64,000 nucleotides of DNA from an uncultured Alphaproteobacteria bacterium (GCA_949297145.1 CASFQO010000013.1:18768-82767); one strand, 5' to 3'. Counted from the stretch's first letter, positions 11,747 through 55,887 are shown. Notes: generated by a model not told the origin, from the sequence alone. A program made the numbers and translations.

Positions 11747-12511
11747 TTATAGCTCTATGGTCATACCATCATAGGCCAATTCTACATTTTGAGGTAGAGA
11801 TGTTTGTATTGCATTATAATCCACACGACAAGATAAATGCGTTAAAATAACTCTTGAAGGGCAAATTTTCTCTATCACCTTTTTTACATTTTCTAAATCA
11901 CTATGTCCGTTCTTTTCCGGATACAAGCCATTGTTACATTCAATTACCAGCAACTTTATGCCCTTTAGCATATTAAGTCCCTGCTGGGGTATTGTTTCCC
12001 AATCGGTTACATAAGCAAAATCTTGATAACGAAAAGCTGAACAATGGAACTGATGATGCGGAACCTGAAAAGTTTGAAATTCAATCCCCTGACTGATAAA
12101 TGTTCCTAAATCCGGCAGTCTGCACCATTTTAATCCGACACTTTCATGTTCGGCGCCATTAAACATAAAACCATAAGTTTGGCGTAATTCTTTTTCTGTT
12201 TCTGCACTAGACCATATTTCTATGGTATGTCCTTTGCTGGAACTGGCTCGCGATAACTCCGGAACGCTTGCTATATGGTCATAATGTCCATGTGTTAGAA
12301 ACACCGAATCTATGTCGGTTATATTGTTCTCATTTATCTCAAGACGAAACTCAGGCCCTGTATCTATCACAAATTTTTTGTTTTCTATTTCCAAATATAA
12401 AGAAGCACGGTTACGGATATTTTTGGAATTTTTTGCGTCTAATAAATTCCATTGATTAAAAATCATCGGGCAACCATAAGCCGAACCGGAACCTAAAATT
12501 ACTATTTTCAT
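11747..12511 (-). CDS. MBL-fold metallo-hydrolase (PhnP-like)
   Basis: 254 aa with KIVILGSGSAYGCP and the THGHYDH motif. Confidence 0.8.
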   Translation of the reverse strand: MKIVILGSGSAYGCPMIFNQWNLLDAKNSKNIRNRASLYLEIENKKFVIDTGPEFRLEINENNITDIDSVFLTHGHYDHIASVPELSRASSSKGHTIEIWSSAETEKELRQTYGFMFNGAEHESVGLKWCRLPDLGTFISQGIEFQTFQVPHHQFHCSAFRYQDFAYVTDWETIPQQGLNMLKGIKLLVIECNNGLYPEKNGHSDLENVKKVIEKICPSRVILTHLSCRVDYNAIQTSLPQNVELAYDGMTIEL

Positions 12512-25059: not shown

Positions 25060-25092
25060 TATTTTTACAATAATAAGTTATTGGGAGTGGCA

Positions 25093-25629
25093 ATGGTTTC
25101 TTATAAGCAATTAACTTTTTGGGTTTTGGCTTTGACCGTTGCCTCTTTTTTTGATGCGCAAGCAGTTGATAAGGTTAAAACTCGTCAAAAATATGGGGCA
25201 GAACTTTCTGCTACAGGTGAGATTTATGCCAAAATTGTCGCTCCGGTTGCAGTGACTTCTTCCAATGATTTACGGTTCGGGACGATTGTAACAAATAACG
25301 CCGGAGATGTTACCGTTGATGAAGCAGGAAACCGAACGACAACCGGTCCGGGGTTGGCGACAAGCGGTTATTCATCAGGAGCTATTCACCTTAGCGGCCC
25401 TAGGGCGCAGGCGGTGTCTGTGGCTATTCCGGGGGCGCACATTTATGACAATGACGATAATTCTATCAATGTTCATTCGTTCACAACGAGCGCAGATAGC
25501 GACAAGCTCATTACGCTAGGCTCGCAAGACGGAAAAGCGGACATCAATGTCGGGGCGACACTCAACGTCTCCGATACGGCAAAAAGTGGTGTTCGTTCAG
25601 GGGTATATCGCATACAAACTTCATACTAA
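25093..25629 (+). CDS. Secreted DUF4402-type putative fibre subunit 1
   Basis: ATG 25093 follows GGGAG. Signal peptide ...FFDAQA, then ATGEIYAKIVAPVAVTSSNDLRFGTIV, with the C-terminus ...SGVYRIQTSY. Confidence 0.7.
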   Translation: MVSYKQLTFWVLALTVASFFDAQAVDKVKTRQKYGAELSATGEIYAKIVAPVAVTSSNDLRFGTIVTNNAGDVTVDEAGNRTTTGPGLATSGYSSGAIHLSGPRAQAVSVAIPGAHIYDNDDNSINVHSFTTSADSDKLITLGSQDGKADINVGATLNVSDTAKSGVRSGVYRIQTSY

Positions 25630-25723
25630 TTAATTATTTATTTTTTTCATTTTATTTTAAACCGAATTTTAACAATTTTCTCTTATAGTTAGATTGAAAT
25701 TACTTATTGCTTTTAGGGGAAAA

Positions 25724-26221
25724 ATGATGAAAAAGAATTTACTTTTGACAGTGGCCGTGGCTGTTTTGGCTTTAGGTAGCTCTGCTGCTCAAGCCGCTGA
25801 AGAATCGGCTACAGGAAACATTAAGGCAAAAATTGTTGCTCCGGTTAGCATTTCCGAACAAGATTCTCTTGATTTTGGTACAATGATTGCGCCGACAGAT
25901 ACATCAAAAAAAGTAACTATTGCTACTAATGGTACAAGAAGTGGTGACTCTTCTATTTTAGTTGGAAACGGTGGTCAGGCCGGTTTGTTTAATGTGACAG
26001 GTGCTGATCGTCAATCTATGACTATTTCGGTTACAGATTCTACAACTTTGACAGGTGCCGGTGATCCTATGACCGTTAATAATTTTGTTACAGAACCTGC
26101 CAGCACACTTACTCTTACAGGCACAAGCGGACAAATTAAAGTTGGTGCAGATTTGACTGTCGGTCAAGGACAAGCTGAGGGTGACTATACCGGTACGTAC
26201 GAGGTTACAGTTAGCTACTAA
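25724..26221 (+). CDS. Secreted DUF4402-type putative major fibre subunit 2
   Basis: Signal peptide MMKKNLLLTVAVAVLALGSSAAQA, then ATGNIKAKIVAPVSISEQDSLDFGTMI, with the C-terminus AEGDYTGTYEVTVSY. Confidence 0.75.
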   Translation: MMKKNLLLTVAVAVLALGSSAAQAAEESATGNIKAKIVAPVSISEQDSLDFGTMIAPTDTSKKVTIATNGTRSGDSSILVGNGGQAGLFNVTGADRQSMTISVTDSTTLTGAGDPMTVNNFVTEPASTLTLTGTSGQIKVGADLTVGQGQAEGDYTGTYEVTVSY

Positions 26222-26250
26222 TTTTGGTTTAGTTTATTATTAGGTATGCT

Positions 26251-26274
26251 ACAAAAAAATGACCCTTTTTTATC
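26251..26274. repeat. Left arm of a 24/23-nt inverted repeat
   Basis: ACAAAAAAATGACCCTTTTTTATC. Its reverse complement matches 26379-26401 except for one extra A in the A run. Confidence 0.9.
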
Positions 26275-26350
26275 AGCAGGGCAGTTAAGAAAATGATTGT
26301 AAATTAAATGGGATAAGTCTTTATTCTTGTTAATAAAAAGTTAATCTTAA

Positions 26351-26378
26351 TTGCTTTGGGGAGAAATCTTTTTATATT
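26351..26378 (+). promoter_or_regulatory. Sigma-70-like promoter TTGCTT-16-TATATT inside the IR-bracketed segment, pointing at the downstream genes
   Basis: Hexamers read directly. The predicted transcription start falls inside the right IR arm. Confidence 0.45.
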
Positions 26379-26401
26379 GATAAAAAAGGGTCATTTTTTG
26401 T
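26379..26401. repeat. Right arm of the inverted repeat
   Basis: GATAAAAAAGGGTCATTTTTTGT. It ends 1 nt before GTG 26402 and contains the only RBS-like AAGGG for that gene. Confidence 0.9.
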
Positions 26402-27334
26402 GTGAAAAATATGTTTAGAAGATGTGTCTGTTTTCTTTTATTTACTTCTGTTTTTAAAGTAGCATCGTGTTGGGCTGTTGATGCTGATTATGTTAGTGTT
26501 ATTCAAAATCTAAATTTTGGAACGTTTATACAAACTTCAGAAAATGCTCAAATTGTTTTAGATTATAATGGGGCTGTCTCTAGTTCTTCTGGTATTACGC
26601 TTCTTAAAAATGGCAATGAAGCAAGACTTGAATATGAAGCGGGACGTTGGTCTGCTGCACATCGAATTTATATGCCTGAAGATTTAAGTTTAACTCTTAA
26701 CGCTAATGGTTGTTCTATATTAATTCATAATTTTTCTTTTTCTGCTTCCTCTCTTTATTTTATCATTGCTGGTGCAACTGATGAGGTTTCTGTTGGCGCG
26801 ACATTAGATATTCAAGGATGGTGTAAAGGTTCTAATGGCAGTTTAGTTGATACGCCTTTTACTGCAACTCAAATTATAGCTCCTACTGCTAATTTGGGTT
26901 ATAATGTTGAAACGGCAAATTTACAAATAAATTTTACCATTGAAGAAAAAATTAGTATTACAAATATACAAGATTTAAATTTTGGCTCCATGATGTCTCC
27001 TTCTAGCAATTCTAGTGTAACAATTTCTCTGGATGGGCAAAGACTTTCTACTGGAGGTATTTATTTAATGGAAAACGCTTCTGTAACAAATGGTCTTTTT
27101 ATTATTGATGGGCAGATTGGAAGAACTGTCTATATTAATTTACCAGATAAGGTTCTTATTTATAATGAATATGGTGATACACTAACAGTTGATAATTTTA
27201 TTTCAAACAAAGGTTCTTCCTTTGTTTTGGATGCAAATTCTGTTGATGCTTATATTGGGGCGACTTTAACTGTTCCTCGTAATGCTGCTGAAGGTAATTA
27301 TTCCGGTACGTATACGGTCACGGTTTCTTATTAG
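26402..27334 (+). CDS. Two-module DUF4402-like secreted protein (candidate tip/adhesin subunit)
   Basis: 310 aa with a signal peptide. Each half carries an LNFG(T/S) motif (VIQNLNFGTFI; ITNIQDLNFGSMM). The C-terminus AEGNYSGTYTVTVSY matches the small subunits. The start is GTG 26402 or ATG 26411. Confidence 0.65.
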   Translation: MKNMFRRCVCFLLFTSVFKVASCWAVDADYVSVIQNLNFGTFIQTSENAQIVLDYNGAVSSSSGITLLKNGNEARLEYEAGRWSAAHRIYMPEDLSLTLNANGCSILIHNFSFSASSLYFIIAGATDEVSVGATLDIQGWCKGSNGSLVDTPFTATQIIAPTANLGYNVETANLQINFTIEEKISITNIQDLNFGSMMSPSSNSSVTISLDGQRLSTGGIYLMENASVTNGLFIIDGQIGRTVYINLPDKVLIYNEYGDTLTVDNFISNKGSSFVLDANSVDAYIGATLTVPRNAAEGNYSGTYTVTVSY

Positions 27335-27353
27335 TCTTTGAAAGGAAGAACTT

Positions 27354-28139
27354 ATGTTAAAAAAAATTTGCAAAATCTATCTCTTGTTTTCTGTTCTTAT
27401 GATGCCGACACTTGCTTTTGCTAATATTTCGGTCTTTCCTTATAGTATTGATTTTGAGGCTAATTCAAAAAAGCGCGTGCAAAGTGTGCGTATTATCAAT
27501 ACTTCTCAGGAAACTCAAACGTATCGTGTTTCTATGGTGAATTTTGTGCAGGATGCTAACGGGAAACTTACTGAAACAAAGGACCCCTCTCCTTTTTATG
27601 CCAATAAATATTTAACTTGGTCGCCACGACAGTTTACTCTGAAACCTAATGAGGTGCAAACTATCAATATTGCCCGCAGAAGTTTGGCGCAAGCTCCGGA
27701 TGGGGAATTTGTTTCTCATCTCAAAATTAGCGAGGTTTTGTTGGGTGCGCCTAAGCTCAAAAGTAAAGATGGCGGGCAATCTAACACCATATCCATGCAG
27801 TTGCGCGCTCTTTTTGCTATCACTATTCCGGTTACCATTACCAAGGGGGATAACCTCTTTAGTAAAACGGAAGTGGTTAGCTATAAATTATTGCCTAACA
27901 ATCAACTCAACCTGGTCTTAAAGCGTTTGGGGAACAAATCTTCCCGCTTTAATGTGGTTGTTGCGGATCAAAAGGATAAAGATATCGGGAGGGTTAACGG
28001 ATTGAAGATTTATATGTCTACGGACACGCTCTCGGTCAATGTACCTCTTGATAAAAATGTTCAAATAAAAAATGCGGTTTTGAAACTTGAAGATGCTAAA
28101 ACGAAGGAAGAAATATTGCGGAAGGCTATATCGCTATAG
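27354..28139 (+). CDS. PapD-like periplasmic pilus chaperone
   Basis: Signal peptide ...PTLAFA, then NISVFPYSIDFEANSKKRVQSVRIINTSQETQTYRVSMVNF and WSPRQFTLKPNEVQTINI, which fit the two-Ig-domain chaperone pattern. 261 aa. Confidence 0.7.
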   Translation: MLKKICKIYLLFSVLMMPTLAFANISVFPYSIDFEANSKKRVQSVRIINTSQETQTYRVSMVNFVQDANGKLTETKDPSPFYANKYLTWSPRQFTLKPNEVQTINIARRSLAQAPDGEFVSHLKISEVLLGAPKLKSKDGGQSNTISMQLRALFAITIPVTITKGDNLFSKTEVVSYKLLPNNQLNLVLKRLGNKSSRFNVVVADQKDKDIGRVNGLKIYMSTDTLSVNVPLDKNVQIKNAVLKLEDAKTKEEILRKAISL

Positions 28140-31086
28140 TTTACTATTTCTTTTGCTTGGCGCCTTCTTTTCTCCGTGGGGCAAAGCCGAAGATTTAACC
28201 GATTATAGTGAAGATCCTCTTATCTTGGAACCTATTATTCAGGGTTTCAATTTAGATGATTATGCCTATGTTTATGAAAAAAACACTAAGCAATATATTT
28301 CTTTGCCGCAAATTGCATCTTATTTGGGAATTAAGTATTCTCTTTCTGATAATGTCATTCGCGGCTATTGGGTCAATACACCGGATAAACCGTTTGTTAT
28401 CAATCTCAATAGCTATACCGTTGAACAAGATGGCGAAGTTACACCTTTTGCTACTAATGAAGTGATTGTGGTTGATAACACTATCTTTTTTGCAGCTGAT
28501 TTCTATATCCGTGTGCTCCATATCAATATTAAGATTGACTCACTTAATATGCAGATGTTGATTACGGCACAAGATGAATTTCCGACTACTCTTAAGCGTA
28601 AAGCGGAGAAAAAAAGAGGCAAAAATAATTTTTCATTCAGAAAAGACAGTTTCAAAAATTATGAATTCGATAACCGTTGGTTTGGCGCTCCGGTGGTTGA
28701 TTTAACCCTCGGAAAAGGCTGGAGCCGCTATGATAGCGTTGATAAGAGTTTTAACAGTGATTCTTATTCTTTGAATGTGGCTATGCTCGCGGCCGGATTG
28801 GATGTTAATGCGTATATTTTTGGAGATTCATATAATGACAGGCAGCCGAGAATCCGCTTAACCGGCAGCAGAACTTTTTTGGATGAACCGGGAAATGCGC
28901 TTAACCTGAAAACATTAAAAGTTGGTGATATCAGCGGGCTTAATTCTTCTTATTTTGCAGATGCATCTTATGGACGAGGTGTTGCGGTCAGCAGCTTTAA
29001 AAACTTAGTTATGTCCGCGAATAAAACAATTGATATTACCGGTCCGCTTTTAGATGGGTGGCAGGTTGAGCTCTATTGGAACGAACAATTGGTTGGATAT
29101 CGTCAAAGCGGTGTGAACGGGCAATATAACTTCCCCGATATTCCGGTTTCGTATGGCTTAAATACGTTTAAACTCGTTTTTTATGGACCTTATGGTGAAA
29201 CACGGACTGAATATGAGCGCTATTATTCCGGTACAAGTCCGGTTAAAAAAGGTGAATTCGGATATACGGCTTCTGCTTATCAACCTTATAGATATCTCTT
29301 TGAAAATAATGAGCCGTTCACTTATAGCGGTGACGATACACCAGTGCTCGATTTTACCGGTTATTATGGTGCCACGGATCATTTGACACTTATGGGCGGT
29401 TTGACGCAAACGCCCGATGCTGAAACGGGAACGGAAACTCAACGTTTTGCTATGGCCGGTGCACAAGTTGCCGTTAAAGGTAGCTCTTTACAATACAACT
29501 TAGAGCAAAATTTGGATACGGATGATTTTGCCCATCACGCAGAATGGCAAGGCGACGTCTATATCGGGTCTATCTATGCCGGATATGATAAATTTAATAA
29601 TATTCACTCGCCGGTTTCTTTTTATGGTGATGAGTATTTAGATGAGCAATTTGAAGCTCGTTTATCCGGTATGTTACCATGGAGAGTGCCGTATTATTTG
29701 AGTTGGCGGCAGGGAACTCTTGAAAGCGATGAAACGTCTTTTAATAATGTTACGGCCAGACTTTCTAAACAGTTGATGAATAGCTTGAATTTGACTTTAG
29801 AAGATAGCTATTACGACTATAACAGCTCTCGCGGTGCTTATAATACCGTACGCTTCGGCGCTTATAAATGGTGGGGAGATTTTTCTTCTGAAACTTGGTT
29901 GACGTATGAAACCTCTCCAGAATCCCGCTTTACGGAATTTTCAACACGTCTTGATTGGCGAACCGGACGAAATACTTATCTTTCCGGAAAATATACTCGC
30001 AACTTAATTGAAGATATGGATTATCTCTCTTTTTCGGGCGGACAAATCTTTCCTTTCGGCGGATTGACGGCCACCCTTGAATTTGATCGAGATTTTAATA
30101 TCAGTTCCTATCTGACTTATAATATCAGCTTTGCTAAGGCGCCGAATTCTATGGATGTGATTACTTCGGCTAACTCAAAACTCAGTAATACCGGTACGAT
30201 GTATGTTCAGGCAACCGATGAGTCCGGTCAACCTTTGGAGGGTATTGGCCTTAACGCTAATGGCTTGGAAAAAGAAATTTATACGGATGAAAATGGTGTA
30301 GCGGTTTTGACCGATTTGCAAACTTATGAAAAAACGGTACTTAACGTTGATACGGAAACGCTATTGGATATTGCATTGCAACCGGTTTATGATGAGAAAA
30401 AGTTAGTTTTAAGACCGGGAACTATCCGAACTGTTTCTATTCCGTTTACGCATCGGGGTGCGGTTGAAGGTAAAATTGAAAACATTGATGATACGCGTAT
30501 GTTTGGATACCAAATTATTGCGCTTGATGCGGACAATAAAGAAATTGCTTCCACTTTTGCTGATATTGAGGGTTTCTTTATCTTGGATGCGGTTCCTTAT
30601 GGAACATATAAAATTGTTATCTCTAAAGATGGAAATCAACTGGCTGAATTGCAAGATGTTAAAGTTGATGATGTTTCTATCTATCTTCCTGATGAGATTA
30701 AACTTGATAAAAAAGCTCTTGATTTCTTTGCTGAAAAAGATAGTGCGGATGAACTTCAATTTGTAGAAGAACAACATGATCTCGGCTATAATAATGTTGA
30801 CTACAGAAACAGAGATTTACCTATAGATATTCCTCAAGCGGTTTCTGAGCCTCAACCGCATATGCCTAAAATTCAAATTGAAGAAATTGAAAAAGATATT
30901 TTTGTGCAGACTGAAGCTCCGGTCTTTCAATCTGTTGCTTCCGTACAATCTTTTGATAGATACACAACCGTGCAAGATATTGAAAAAGGTATTTTCGCGG
31001 TAGCAACTCAGAATAGTTCTGTTTCTTATATTCTGCATGACTTGGAATATAATGTTGCACTTCAAGATGTTTTGGAAAAAGAATAG
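28093..31086 (+). CDS. Large outer-membrane usher-like protein
   Basis: About 998 aa; it overlaps the chaperone gene by about 47 nt. After the signal peptide, the N-terminus LILEPIIQGFNLDDYAYVY...YISLPQIASYLGI resembles an usher N-terminal domain. The middle is long and Tyr/Gly/Asp-rich, as for a beta-barrel. Two CarboxypepD_reg-like beta-sandwich modules follow (MYVQATDESGQPLEG...; GAVEGKIEN...GFFILDAVPYGTYKIVI). Confidence 0.6.
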   Translation: MLKRRKKYCGRLYRYSLLFLLLGAFFSPWGKAEDLTDYSEDPLILEPIIQGFNLDDYAYVYEKNTKQYISLPQIASYLGIKYSLSDNVIRGYWVNTPDKPFVINLNSYTVEQDGEVTPFATNEVIVVDNTIFFAADFYIRVLHINIKIDSLNMQMLITAQDEFPTTLKRKAEKKRGKNNFSFRKDSFKNYEFDNRWFGAPVVDLTLGKGWSRYDSVDKSFNSDSYSLNVAMLAAGLDVNAYIFGDSYNDRQPRIRLTGSRTFLDEPGNALNLKTLKVGDISGLNSSYFADASYGRGVAVSSFKNLVMSANKTIDITGPLLDGWQVELYWNEQLVGYRQSGVNGQYNFPDIPVSYGLNTFKLVFYGPYGETRTEYERYYSGTSPVKKGEFGYTASAYQPYRYLFENNEPFTYSGDDTPVLDFTGYYGATDHLTLMGGLTQTPDAETGTETQRFAMAGAQVAVKGSSLQYNLEQNLDTDDFAHHAEWQGDVYIGSIYAGYDKFNNIHSPVSFYGDEYLDEQFEARLSGMLPWRVPYYLSWRQGTLESDETSFNNVTARLSKQLMNSLNLTLEDSYYDYNSSRGAYNTVRFGAYKWWGDFSSETWLTYETSPESRFTEFSTRLDWRTGRNTYLSGKYTRNLIEDMDYLSFSGGQIFPFGGLTATLEFDRDFNISSYLTYNISFAKAPNSMDVITSANSKLSNTGTMYVQATDESGQPLEGIGLNANGLEKEIYTDENGVAVLTDLQTYEKTVLNVDTETLLDIALQPVYDEKKLVLRPGTIRTVSIPFTHRGAVEGKIENIDDTRMFGYQIIALDADNKEIASTFADIEGFFILDAVPYGTYKIVISKDGNQLAELQDVKVDDVSIYLPDEIKLDKKALDFFAEKDSADELQFVEEQHDLGYNNVDYRNRDLPIDIPQAVSEPQPHMPKIQIEEIEKDIFVQTEAPVFQSVASVQSFDRYTTVQDIEKGIFAVATQNSSVSYILHDLEYNVALQDVLEKE

Positions 31087-31169: not shown

Positions 31170-31847
31170 TTATTCTGGTAACAGCGGGGTTAAATATTCC
31201 ATATACGGATCATCTTCACCGGATGTCAAGGTTAAACTTCCATCTTTATTTTTTGTTTTAGAATCTATCTGATTATATGCATAACCATCAAAGTCATTCA
31301 AATCAGCCTTTTGAGTACCGTCTAAGTATATATTTTTAATTGTTACCTTGCCTGGGTTAGAATCAAAATCTATACGTACTCTAAAGACCTTATCCGACGG
31401 AATTACAACGCTATATTTATGAGTTCCTGCTTCTCCCGCATATTCTACAACATGACTAGCATCGTACCATACTTCTCTTTTTACCGTATAAAATACTTGA
31501 TAATTCAACGGTTTTTCTGAAGTTGCTTCAAAAGTTAACACAGAATTCTTCGGCTCTACTTCTATGATTTCTTTCGTTATTTCCGGAAGCTTTTGCCCTT
31601 CCTCAGCCTTTTGAGGTGTTTTCTCTTCTTTGGGCTCCGCCTTAACCTTTGCTTCTGCTTTGAGTTCTGCTGTTTTTGCAGCTTTTTCAGGCAATTTCTC
31701 TTCTACTTTTATCGGAGCCGACGTTGTTTTTGCTGGCTCGTTTTTCTCTCCGCTAAATACGGATACAAGTAAAATGACTGCAACGGCAACAATGATGCCT
31801 GCAACAATTTTTTGCTTTTTGGTAATTTTTATTTCTTTATCTTCCAT
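31170..31847 (-). CDS. Membrane-anchored protein with Lys/Glu/Pro-rich linker and beta-rich C-terminal domain
   Basis: 225-aa ORF with a single N-terminal TM (IVAGIIVAVAVILLVSVF). No family recognised. Confidence 0.6.
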   Translation of the reverse strand: MEDKEIKITKKQKIVAGIIVAVAVILLVSVFSGEKNEPAKTTSAPIKVEEKLPEKAAKTAELKAEAKVKAEPKEEKTPQKAEEGQKLPEITKEIIEVEPKNSVLTFEATSEKPLNYQVFYTVKREVWYDASHVVEYAGEAGTHKYSVVIPSDKVFRVRIDFDSNPGKVTIKNIYLDGTQKADLNDFDGYAYNQIDSKTKNKDGSLTLTSGEDDPYMEYLTPLLPE

Positions 31848-37980: not shown

Positions 37981-38064
37981 GCGGGCGTGGTGAAATTGGT
38001 AGACACGCTAGACTTAGGATCTAGTGGCTTTGCTGTGAGAGTTCGAGTCTCTCCGCCCGCACCA
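37981..38064 (+). tRNA. tRNA-Leu (anticodon UAG)
   Basis: Acceptor stem GCGGGCG/CGCCCGC. Anticodon arm CTAGA-CTTAGGA-TCTAG. Long variable arm, T-arm GTTCGAGTC, and an encoded CCA. Confidence 0.93.
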
Positions 38065-43561: not shown

Positions 43562-43638
43562 CGGAACGTAGTTCAGCCTGGTAGAACGCTGCGTTCGGGT
43601 CGCAGAGGTCAGTGGTTCGAATCCACCCGTTCCGACCA
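43562..43638 (+). tRNA. tRNA-Pro (anticodon CGG)
   Basis: Acceptor stem CGGAACG/CGTTCCG. Anticodon arm CTGCG-TTCGGGT-CGCAG. T-arm GGTTCGAATCC and an encoded CCA. 77 nt. Confidence 0.93.
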
Positions 43639-47763: not shown

Positions 47764-47804
47764 AAAAAAAATTGCGCCAGTGTGCGAACCCTCGCTGACT
47801 GACG
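47764..47804 (-). terminator. Intrinsic-terminator-like two-tier hairpin plus U8 inside the ffh leader
   Basis: The minus strand reads CGTCAGT-CA-GCGA-GGGT-TCGC-ACA-ACTGGCG-CAA-TTTTTTTT. It lies between a good promoter (47846-47873) and the ffh start codon. Confidence 0.5.
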
Positions 47805-47845
47805 GCACTCCGTAGAGTGTTATTTTTTTACTTAAATCTGCCTAG

Positions 47846-54396: not shown

Positions 54397-55785
54397 CTAA
54401 AAGTTTAGTGATTTCGGTGTTCTCGGGAACGGGATAACATCACGAATATTGGCAATACCCGTCAATAACATCATCATCCGCTCAAAGCCCAATCCGAAAC
54501 CTGCGTGTGGAACGGAACCGTATTTACGCGAATCGAGGTACCATCCATAATCTTCTTCGTGCATCCCCAATTCTTCAATACGCTTTTTCAACAAATCATA
54601 TCTTTCTTCTCTTTGGGAACCGCCGATTAGCTCACCTATTCTCGGAACAAGAACATCCATGGCGGCGACGGTTTTGTTATCTTCGTTCATGCGCATATAA
54701 AAGGCTTTAATTTCTTTTGGATAATCGCGTACAATCACCGGCCGCTTAAAGTGTTCTTCGGCTAAAAAGCGCTCATGCTCTGTTTGCATGTCTATGCCAT
54801 ATTCCGGTTCATATTCAAATTTTTTACCGGACTTTTTCATTATCTCTATAGCCTCTGTATAGGTAATGCGTGCAAAACTGTTATTTTTAATGGTGTTTAG
54901 GGTATCCATTAACGTCGGATCTACAAATTTTGCAAAAAGCTCTATATCATCATGACAATTTTCCATCACATCCGTTACACAATAACGAACCATATCTTCG
55001 GCTAAATCCATATCATCATAAATATCAGCAAATGCCATTTCCGGCTCTATCATCCAAAACTCTGCCGCGTGACGCGCCGTATTGGAGTTTTCGGCTCTGA
55101 AGGTCGGACCAAAGGTATAAATATCGCCTAATGCACAAGCATACATTTCTCCGTTTAATTGTCCGGAAACCGTCAAATGTGCCGGCTTGCCGAAAAAGTC
55201 TTGGCTATAATCAATATCACCATTTGGCAACCGCGGCGGATTTTTGATATCTAAGGTTGTTACTTGGAACATCTCGCCGGCGCCTTCGCAGTCTGAACCG
55301 GTAATAATCGGCGTATGAACATACTTAAAGCCGCGTTCTTGGAAAAATTTGTGAATAGCATAAGACAGTGCCGAGCGAACTCTGAAGGCCGCACCATATT
55401 TATTGGTTCTTGGACGGAGGTGAGCGATGGTGCGCAAATACTCATCAGAGTGTTTCTTTTTTTGAAGCGGAAAATCTTCCGGAGCTAAGCTATATATCTC
55501 AATCTTTTTGGCAACGACTTCATATTTTTGGTTGCCGCCTTGCGACTCTACTAATGCGCCGGTAACGGCTACTGATGATCCGGTAGAAAGATTTTTTACT
55601 TCATTATAATTGGGGAGATTATTATGAGCGATTATTTGCAAATTCTTTAAACATGAACCGTCGTTTATTTCTATAAATGAAAAATCTTTGGCATCTCTTC
55701 TGGTTCTAACCCAACCTTTTGCCAAAACTTCCGGTTGCGTCGTTTCTGATTTCAATAAATCTACAATTTTTGTTCTTCTTAACAT
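54397..55785 (-). CDS. asnS: Asparagine--tRNA ligase
   Basis: Start moved to [11 protein letters not shown]... OB-fold N-terminus, [21 protein letters not shown], and [15 protein letters not shown]. Confidence 0.95.
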
Positions 55786-55887
55786 TTTCAATAATTCCCC
55801 ATTTGTTAAATGTTGTTTTTTAAAGCAAACAGGAGCATAGAACATTTTGTTTTAAATGTAAACAGATTTATCTTTTTGTGTTTTATA

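Follow-up and report, generated by a model that had tools for sequence, protein, structure and literature searches.

A five-gene operon within a stretch of 64,000 nucleotides (nt) from an uncultured Alphaproteobacteria bacterium (CASFQO010000013.1, 18768 to 82767; the whole stretch is called the window hereafter) very likely encodes a chaperone-usher pilus system that belongs to an undescribed clade. Its genes specify two small subunits and a two-domain protein of the DUF4402 family, a periplasmic chaperone and an outer-membrane usher (Table 1), and the system is probably a new, deep-branching and phase-variable variant of the chaperone-usher pathway. The preliminary description of the window had proposed an undescribed fibre locus of chaperone-usher type, a proposal that is supported by the tests of fold, profile similarity, donor-strand conservation, gene linkage and literature given below; the invertible element inside the operon was absent from that description and is new here. 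The five co-oriented open reading frames (ORFs), all on the + strand, lie where it had placed them, and its lengths of 179 and 166 amino acids (aa) for the two small proteins included the stop codon, the proteins having 178 and 165 aa. It had also stated that no experimental description of a DUF4402 fibre was known, in agreement with our search of a library of 8 million papers, none of which mentions DUF4402 or PF14352, and with targeted searches, which found no prior description.

DUF4402 subunits and the two-domain protein

Membership of the three subunits in the DUF4402 family (PF14352), claimed earlier, is far beyond chance. Against the gathering cut-off of 25.2 bits, subunit 1 scores 72.6 bits (6e-20), subunit 2 scores 95.2 bits (6.3e-27) and the two-domain protein scores 135.7 bits (1.9e-39), the latter in two stretches; an NCBIfam search gave nothing. 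The N-terminal motif that had been attributed to both small proteins is indeed found in subunit 1 (ATGEIYAKIVAPVAV...LRFGT) and in subunit 2 (ATGNIKAKIVAPVSI...LDFGT), whereas the C-terminal one is complete in subunit 2, where GDYTGTYEVTVSY is the protein end, and in the two-domain protein (GNYSGTYTVTVSY), and is fitted only in part by subunit 1 (GVRSGVYRIQTSY), with the divergent GVYRIQTSY. Subunit 1 carries a signal peptide and an additional N-terminal stretch of ~16 aa before its donor-strand motif ATGEIYAKIVAPV, and the related gut loci L009-L013 and L016 have a gene of its type at the corresponding place; it is probably a minor or adaptor subunit. Subunit 2, with the N-terminal extension ATGNIKAKIVAPV outside the Pfam domain, is probably the major stalk subunit and the canonical DUF4402 pilin.

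The AlphaFold2 model of mature subunit 2 (148 sequences, pLDDT 94.7) is all-beta, with the C-terminal VTVS as last strand; residues 1-17 (AEESATGNIKAKIVAPV) are in no strand and the monomer model ends with the F strand. When this model is compared with the PDB by Foldseek, the best 50 matches are all chaperone-usher pilins or pilin domains, including CsuA/B, CfaB, FimA/F/G/H, PapA/H/G, SafA and CsuE, with Caf1 as the single best structural match.

The preliminary description held the subunits to be unlike the Csu/SCPU pilins. This stands when hidden Markov models (HMMs) are compared with sequences, since no SCPU (PF05229) match appeared in the Pfam scan of the window proteins at E<=1 and the SCPU HMM matched 0 of 212 DUF4402 ORFs, but it does not stand for the comparison of profiles. 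The Csu-type and classical profiles used in this work were built from annotated operons, and the SCPU profile contains 14 pilins, the CsuA/B sequence having been checked against PDB entry 7zl4. By hhalign, the DUF4402 profile aligns with it at 95% (E 3.6e-8) over 132 columns extending from the donor strand to the C-terminus, while the reversed control reaches 0.5%; as a scale, SCPU against Fim-type subunits gives 5e-9. Hhalign of the DUF4402, chaperone or usher family profiles against single known sequences (FimC, FimD, CsuA/B) was too weak for use. The significant profile match with its clean reversed control places DUF4402, at the level of sequence, as a distant sister of the archaic Csu/SCPU pilins and not as an unrelated fold. 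Both families have a TG-containing donor strand, an L-x-F-G motif and a G-x-Y-x-x-T-x-x-V-T-V-x-aromatic ending. Two cysteines are found in 14/14 SCPU pilins and none in 141/170 DUF4402 pilins (none in 133/148 of alignment A3); mature subunits 1 and 2 have no Cys. The other part of the claim, that the subunits are unlike those of FimA/PapA type, holds, their profile matching Fim-type subunits at only 14.9% (E 2e-3).

The xTGxAxAxIVxP stretch located outside the Pfam domain is carried by 164 of the 196 single-domain DUF4402 ORFs of the 63 loci surveyed below. Its hydrophobic alternation is strict, HMM positions 32, 34 and 36 being hydrophobic in 95-99% and positions 33 and 35 in 9-19%, and Gly30 is near-invariant (146/164). 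CsuA/B polymerises via the equivalent strand AVTGQVDVKLNI (PMC4654587). The two-domain protein differs from the single-domain subunits in that respect. In 11/11 two-domain homologues, domain 1 starts at HMM 38-46, right after the signal peptide, leaving the donor-strand columns empty, whereas domain 2 starts at HMM 17-35 and covers some or all of these columns (28-40). Ahead of domain 2 runs a strand of alternating hydrophobicity whose hydrophobic residues are larger, L-Q-I-N-F-T-I in the window protein, where the strand between the domains, NLQINFTIEEK, resembles an N-terminal donor extension. A subunit without N-terminal donor strand can occupy only the distal end of a fibre, the same argument that places CsuE at the tip (PMC6003481). 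Hence, the two-domain protein is predicted to be the tip subunit, a role that the preliminary description had considered possible for what it correctly took to be two DUF4402 modules. The linker strand NLQINFTIEEK would complete domain 1 in cis, so that the groove of domain 2 would stay free to receive the next subunit, a layout that would be the same as that of engineered self-complemented pilins (e.g. 6fm5), which carry the donor strand as a C-terminal addition. The tip protein was also considered as a lipoprotein; this was rejected, the VASC motif being preceded by Lys and its Cys being absent from close homologues.

Periplasmic chaperone, outer-membrane usher and their linkage

Of the Pfam families named in the preliminary description, DUF4402 is matched by the three subunits, whereas PapD (PF00345/PF02753) and Usher (PF00577), as well as Fimbrial (PF00419), gave no match for the window proteins at E<=1. 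Pfam finds only weak Ig-like matches in the window chaperone, and a PDB sequence search with it returned nothing significant. Its AlphaFold2 model (32 homologues, pLDDT 89.8, pTM 0.79) consists of two beta-sandwich domains and yields 336 Foldseek matches in the PDB at E<=1e-3, headed by CfaA (2e-11) and CsuC (1.5e-10, TM 0.62), followed by YadV, Caf1M, FimC and PapD; Enterococcus WxLIP proteins stand at ranks 5, 8 and 11 of the list. Within the family, Pfam PapD_N is matched by 26/58 members and an HMM of Csu-type chaperones by 27/61, and the family profile aligns with the Csu-type chaperones at 98.1% (E 1e-13; reversed control 0.06%). Hence, the protein has a two-domain fold like that of PapD, in line with the PapD-type chaperone proposed earlier, but the closest relatives are the non-classical (archaic and alternative) chaperones and not PapD itself.

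The predicted G1 strand of the chaperone is F154-A-I-T-I-P-V-T-I162, with Pro159 invariant, and its ITIP aligns with Tyr116-Ser-Ile-Pro (YSIP) of CsuC, whose G1 donor motif has been described (PMC4654587). Archaic chaperones are characterised by a carboxylate anchor spread over two domains (Arg89, Arg174 and Tyr196 in CsuC) and by a register-shifted G1 motif. The Arg of the family consensus GEYRSHL aligns with Arg89, which anchors the subunit carboxylate, and window Arg198, a position that varies within the family, aligns by eye with Arg174. In domain 2, Arg191 shows no variation throughout the family. The gut-alphaproteobacterial chaperone clade that includes the window protein has Val at the Arg89 position (alignment A6), so that the mode of anchoring may differ within the family.

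The usher is poorly served by current models. The only Pfam match of the window protein is CarboxypepD_reg (aa 793-861, 30463..30669 (+), 1.1e-11), and public records call its homologues 'carboxypeptidase regulatory-like domain-containing protein', 'Outer membrane protein' or 'OmpA family protein'. Among 38 close homologues, six touch Pfam Usher and four touch CooC_C. The only homologues that pass classical Pfam cut-offs are the chaperone P0068 (PapD_N, 26.3 vs 23 bits) and the usher P0105, which is 55% identical to the window protein and just passes Usher (27.5 vs 27.1 bits, profile positions 298-527). When the PDB was searched by sequence with chaperone, usher or a family profile (A1, A2, A3, A5), transthyretin-like domains were the sole outcome; none of the matches was a chaperone, usher or pilin.

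Profile comparison points to an usher, as the preliminary description had suggested for the protein of ~998 aa. Profile A5, built from 40 ushers of the genome survey, was compared with six Csu-type ushers (from annotated plasmid operons) and four classical E. coli ushers. It aligns with the former over 725 collinear columns locally (98.6%, E 5e-16) and 750 columns globally (99.7%, E 6e-25), and with the latter over 496 columns (97.8%, E 1e-12). A reversed Csu-type template gave 2.2% (E 0.021, 63 columns), and the reversed and cross-family controls did not exceed that value. With 4e-41 for Csu-type against classical ushers, the window usher family is an outlier to both. Alignment to FimD and CsuD delimits putative N-terminal, barrel, plug and CTD1 regions (Table 1); in the plug, the motif VELYWNEQLVGYRQSGVNGQYNFPDIPVSYGLNTFKLVFYGPYGE aligns with its Csu-type counterpart, and alignment to FimD alone recovers the CTD1 motif TDxxGxAxL...Y...D...L.D.

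The transthyretin-like CarboxypepD_reg domain sits at the position of usher CTD2, window residues 798-838 aligning to CsuD 751-789; it is found in 37/40 family ushers, and SdrD_B is also matched in 31/40. The C-terminal tail of the window usher (30694..31083 (+), ~130 aa) is acidic and poorly conserved, with no consensus in alignment A2. Some homologues end instead in an OmpA-like domain (PF00691: P0140, P0141 from Elusimicrobium minutum Pei191, P0144 and P0147) or in SPOR (PF05036: P0139 and P0148). The C-termini of FimD and PapC are periplasmic; if so here, the OmpA-like and SPOR domains would tie the usher to peptidoglycan, and we know of no characterised system with peptidoglycan-anchored ushers. 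The ushers of Novosphingobium have 1,200-1,370 aa with SdrD_B repeats.

Whether DUF4402 genes are generally linked to chaperone and usher genes, a survey suggested in the preliminary description, was addressed with a pattern-based scan of one genome per species, which started from a 15-sequence DUF4402 subset, is biased towards proteins with the Y[TS]GTYxVTV motif and gave 63 loci. An HMM search found a window-type chaperone in 57 of them and both this chaperone and a window-type usher in 51, and in nearly all loci these genes are co-oriented and just downstream of the subunit genes. In a few loci, such as L018, L033 and L069, the machinery is on the other strand or elsewhere in the locus. Most of the loci short of the full set are on cut contigs; the six loci with chaperone but without usher are all on short or cut contigs, and three loci, L054, L065 and L066, look like true orphans. 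Dozens of unrelated genomes share the gene order of the window. The number of DUF4402 subunit genes goes from one in Kiloniella to seven in Novosphingobium (L026, L028, L034 and others), whereas gut Alphaproteobacteria and Elusimicrobia combine subunits with a two-domain tip. In Draconibacterium (L014, 8033-12870), a two-gene DUF4402 pair is repeated three times in tandem before the chaperone gene.

A search with subunit 2 gave 3,397 clusters at 50% identity (E<=1e-3). The family had been regarded as mostly alphaproteobacterial; Alphaproteobacteria are indeed among the hosts, but these belong to at least six phyla and also include Gammaproteobacteria, Bacteroidota (Draconibacterium, Segetibacter), Acidobacteriota (Thermoanaerobaculia), Verrucomicrobiota (Lentimonas) and Elusimicrobiota (Endomicrobiaceae; Elusimicrobium minutum Pei191).

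The 102-bp segment and the genomic setting of the operon

The segment that separates the subunit 2 and tip genes is bounded by an inverted repeat that is perfect over 22 nt (Table 1). From the end of its right arm it is 3 nt to GTG 26402 and 12 nt to ATG 26411, the start of the tip gene in the public assembly annotation. The repeat has two copies only in the window, none being expected by chance. The core of the left arm, A6-TGACCC-T6, is itself palindromic with an asymmetric centre, and across relatives both arms follow the palindromic design A6-YGAYCC-T6, asymmetric at the core. The repeat is found at the same place in L010, L013 and L016 and, imperfect, in L009, L011 and L012, and it is kept in related species even where the inner sequence differs. 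A miniature inverted-repeat transposable element was considered as its source and rejected on the grounds of the two copies in the window and the conserved position across species.

Both orientations of the segment occur in public assemblies. In L085 (ERZ16268241 scaffold_124, 112 kb; 1344-1489) the inner 102 nt are the exact reverse complement of those in the window (90/90 12-mers reversed), with identical arms and flanks that are collinear at 98.5-99.6%. All other spanning assemblies (L076-L080, L083, L084, L086, L087, L090 and L092), as well as L009, L010 and L013, have the window orientation. Moreover, the 325-kb scaffold L082 stops precisely where the left arm does and the Logan contig L089 starts precisely where the right arm does, as expected when both orientations coexist; two more contigs break inside the element. 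One flipped assembly thus provides direct evidence, at the assembly level, for site-specific inversion in natural populations. As with fimS, the segment probably makes expression of the tip, chaperone and usher genes phase-variable. By eye, a weak promoter candidate, TTGCTT-N16/17-TATATT, points towards the tip gene in the window orientation.

The ATG of subunit 1 follows the stop codon of the CNNM/CorC gene upstream of it after only 33 nt (25060-25092), an interval in which the scan for promoter consensus sites found none. Both pilin genes may be co-transcribed with the CNNM/CorC gene, in which case the inverton would control only the tip and the machinery. Around the operon, the frequency of promoter and terminator consensus sites does not exceed that of shuffled sequence.

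Table 1. Genes of the operon, regions predicted in the usher by alignment, and parts of the inverted-repeat element
Feature	Position	Strand	Details
Subunit 1 gene	25093..25629	+	178 aa from ATG; mechanical ORF start is TTG 25081
Subunit 2 gene	25724..26221 (ORF from 25694)	+	165 aa; mature 141 aa
Left inverted-repeat arm (IRL)	26254..26275		AAAAAATGACCCTTTTTTATCA
Invertible segment	26276..26377		102 bp, between subunit 2 and tip genes
Right inverted-repeat arm (IRR)	26378..26399		TGATAAAAAAGGGTCATTTTTT
Two-domain DUF4402 gene	26402/26411..27334	+	310 aa from GTG, 307 aa from ATG
Chaperone gene	27354..28139	+	261 aa
Usher gene	28087/28093..31086	+	999 or 997 aa
Usher N-terminal domain (predicted)	about aa 41-160 (999-aa ORF numbering)		alignment to FimD, CsuD
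Usher barrel (predicted)	about aa 200-695, plug about 300-390 (999-aa numbering)		alignment to FimD, CsuD
Usher CTD1 (predicted)	about aa 700-790 (999-aa numbering)		alignment to FimD, CsuD

The gaps between the five genes range from -47 to +189 nt, and in public assemblies of the same strain the products are called as 178, 165, 307, 261 and 997 aa. The host is an uncultured human-gut alphaproteobacterium, subunit 2 being 100% identical to that of the metagenome-assembled genome CALXTN01 (isolate BRZ_QQ__bin90). The locus is chromosomal and lies amid housekeeping genes, with the CNNM/CorC transporter gene upstream and pyrG, secG and tpiA downstream. Just downstream of the usher gene and convergent with it, an ORF at 31170-31847 (- strand) encodes a membrane-anchored, Lys/Glu/Ala-rich protein of 225 aa with no Pfam match on record. 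Farther away, a 254-aa protein of metallo-beta-lactamase fold (11747-12511, - strand; L093:5068-5832) matches PF23023 (Anti-Pycsar Apyc1) and Lactamase_B in precomputed data and probably represents a generic cyclic-nucleotide phosphodiesterase fold. The Rfam ffh small RNA/leader element located just upstream of ffh (47767-47810, - strand; 38.7 bits vs a cut-off of 35) and two Rfam tRNA genes (37981-38061 and 43562-43635, + strand) are ordinary housekeeping context. A record look-up for the ORF at 54397-55845 returned nothing.

Weighing of the evidence, assembly model and known systems

A chaperone-usher machinery does not by itself imply a discrete pilus; it might instead secrete a capsule or polyadhesin similar to Caf1, or form a coat on the surface in the way of Myxococcus spore coat protein U. 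The rank of Caf1 as best structural match of the subunit would agree with such a product, as would the name of SCPU, the nearest sequence family, which comes from a spore-coat protein, and the many operons, such as those of Kiloniella, that contain one subunit gene with chaperone and usher genes like a minimal caf system. A dedicated two-domain protein without donor strand is, however, the hallmark of a tipped fibre, and thin pili are the product of Csu and CupE, the characterised systems nearest to this one (PMC9452303, PMC10104325), so a coat is quite improbable. Still further from what we expect, and hardly credible, is that the large protein is some other outer-membrane barrel with transthyretin-like domains, that the DUF4402 proteins stay unpolymerised in the periplasm or at the surface, and that the resemblance to chaperone-usher systems is superficial. 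Its sole Pfam match, the public names of its homologues and the PDB sequence searches, which returned no usher, could be read in this way. They are opposed by the collinear alignment of the usher profile with both Csu-type and classical ushers at values far from those of the controls, by the recognisable plug and CTD1 motifs together with the passing of Pfam Usher by P0105, and by the constant pairing of the large protein with a PapD-fold chaperone and pilin-fold proteins.

With respect to the inverted repeat, it might act solely as an RNA hairpin, an attenuator or mRNA stabiliser that sets the ratio of pilin to machinery, the flip in L085 being an assembly artefact. As RNA, the 180-nt interval from the subunit 2 gene to the tip gene has a predicted folding energy of -58.3 kcal/mol (z -7.0), on account of the perfect 22-nt inverted repeat, while the remaining intergenic regions have no unusual folding stability, and fimbrial operons commonly have a stem-loop behind the major pilin gene. 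The flipped state is seen in one assembly and no recombinase gene was found nearby, in the 64-kb window, which would also suit a hairpin. That this is its only role seems unlikely, since the flip in L085 is exact, precisely bounded by the arms and placed inside a 112-kb scaffold with collinear flanks, independent assemblies (L082 and L089) break exactly at the arm boundaries, and the arms are palindromes with an asymmetric core like a recombinase site, a design that survives in relatives with changed inner sequence. The hairpin and the invertible switch are not mutually exclusive.

Several observations weigh against a phase-variable pilus system encoded by the operon: (i) the fibre is predicted from genes, and the organism is uncultured; (ii) the structural matches of subunit 2 are weak, with a best E of 7e-3, none at E<=1e-3 and TM of about 0.5; (iii) the window chaperone and usher fall below the Pfam PapD_N and Usher cut-offs, and only 3/40 family ushers match Pfam Usher; (iv) the barrel-with-plug architecture of the usher is deduced from homology through alignment of sequence profiles; (v) the window chaperone has Val120 (27711-27713) where CsuC has Arg89, whereas the family consensus retains Arg; (vi) neither a sigma-70 consensus scan nor a terminator search found anything inside the segment in either orientation; and (vii) the Pfam tables of all called genes in the 64-kb window contain no recombinase or integrase family, although a recombinase could act in trans from elsewhere in the genome.

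Taking these points together with the evidence for a pilus system, we propose the following model of assembly. The three DUF4402 proteins would be exported by Sec, and in the periplasm each pilin domain would form an Ig-like sandwich without the last (G) strand, into whose open groove the 261-aa chaperone would insert its G1 strand (FAITIPVTI). On arrival at the usher (997 aa), an incoming subunit would displace the chaperone strand with its N-terminal extension (xTGxAxAxIVxP), and this donor strand exchange would join the subunits head to tail, the fibre leaving through the usher barrel. Lacking an N-terminal donor strand, the two-domain protein would enter first and become the distal tip, and its domain 1 would probably be completed in cis by the donor-like interdomain linker strand. 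Subunit 2 would probably provide the stalk and subunit 1 a minor component. The 102-bp segment, placed upstream of the tip, chaperone and usher genes, would probably switch assembly on and off within the population.

If the model is correct, it gives a function to DUF4402, a large family of unknown function, and widens the known range of the chaperone-usher pathway to include phyla where such pili are little studied. We lean, with some reserve, towards a broader view, in which the DUF4402 operons constitute a major, deep-branching and unrecognised chaperone-usher class, of a rank like that of the classical, alternative and archaic classes, and the fibre of uncultured human-gut Alphaproteobacteria is phase-variable through a new type of recombinase site inside the operon. 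Such a class would comprise ~3,400 clusters at 50% identity in at least six phyla, with cysteine-free pilins, a tandem-pilin tip complemented in cis and ushers missed by current models, some of them with peptidoglycan-binding C-termini. Surveys relying on Pfam Usher would miss most of it, given the small fraction of family ushers that match this model. The family would also offer natural experiments, namely archaic-like pilins without disulfide, ushers fused to peptidoglycan-binding domains and a tip resembling a natural version of an engineered self-complemented subunit. For gut microbiology, the operon probably represents a phase-variable adhesin of uncultured human-gut Alphaproteobacteria, and cultured carriers of homologous operons (Novosphingobium, Kiloniella majae, Erythrobacter sp. 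YT30 and Elusimicrobium minutum) make the prediction testable.

The putative regulatory element shares with E. coli fimS and gut-bacterial invertons a short segment bounded by inverted repeats, which lies just ahead of genes for fimbrial assembly and occurs in natural populations in either orientation. It differs from these in its position inside the operon, after two pilin genes, so that its control would extend to the tip and the machinery while leaving out the two pilin genes ahead of it, and in that neither an adjacent recombinase gene nor a recognisable promoter was found in the window. To our knowledge, the A6-YGAYCC-T6 design matches no known recombinase site. Gut-bacterial invertons cluster near surface-structure genes (PMC11892184, PMC11602134).

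With the classical systems (type 1 or Fim, P or Pap, and the F1 capsule, Caf1) the operon has in common a PapD-fold chaperone and an usher with putative plug and CTD1. FimC, PapD, Caf1M and YadV match the window chaperone at E 1e-8 to 1e-9, the usher profile aligns with that of the classical ushers, and Caf1 and FimA/F/G match the subunit model. It departs from them in the poor match of its subunits to those of Fim type and in that the window proteins reach none of the Fimbrial, PapD_N, PapD_C and Usher cut-offs. Among the alternative systems, CFA/I (CfaA/B/C/E) contributes the best structural match of the chaperone, CfaA, and CfaB among the subunit matches. The chaperone profile also aligns with EcpB/EcpE of the E. 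coli common pilus (EcpA-E) at 93.5% (E 2e-7), whereas the subunit profile is unrelated to EcpA (2%) and the usher matches EcpC weakly (49.5%, E 2e-4). The alternative systems also differ from the operon in their Pfam families.

The archaic systems (Acinetobacter baumannii Csu, CsuA/B-A-B-C-D-E; Pseudomonas aeruginosa CupE; SCPU subunits) are the closest by profile for all three components, subunits (3.6e-8), chaperones (1e-13) and ushers (5e-16). The operon logic is the same, chaperone and usher being encoded alongside several small subunits and a two-domain tip that has no donor strand; so is the design of the subunit, in which a signal peptide is followed by a TG-containing alternating donor strand and L-x-F-G, with G-x-Y-x-x-T-x-x-V-T-V-x-aromatic at or beside the C-terminus. 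The proline-containing G1 motif of the chaperone likewise aligns with the SIP of CsuC. The differences affect each component. Pfam treats the two pilin families as separate, no DUF4402 protein (0/212) matches the SCPU HMM, and the invariant cysteine pair of the SCPU pilin domain (PMC4654587) is absent from most DUF4402 pilins. Only 1/56 ushers of DUF4402 loci matches the HMM of Csu-type (sigma) ushers, the DUF4402 usher being far more distant from the Csu type than the Csu type is from the classical one, and its domain at the CTD2 position is recognisably transthyretin-like, with a C-terminus often extended by OmpA, SPOR or SdrD_B repeats. The N-terminal domain of the Csu tip, CsuE, is a mixed alpha/beta finger, whereas the DUF4402 tip has a second pilin-like domain, and the tip gene precedes the chaperone gene here but follows the usher gene in Csu. 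Judged by sequence profiles, therefore, the DUF4402 system is closest to the archaic class, yet it stands apart from it in the SCPU domain, the cysteine pair and the grouping of its ushers.

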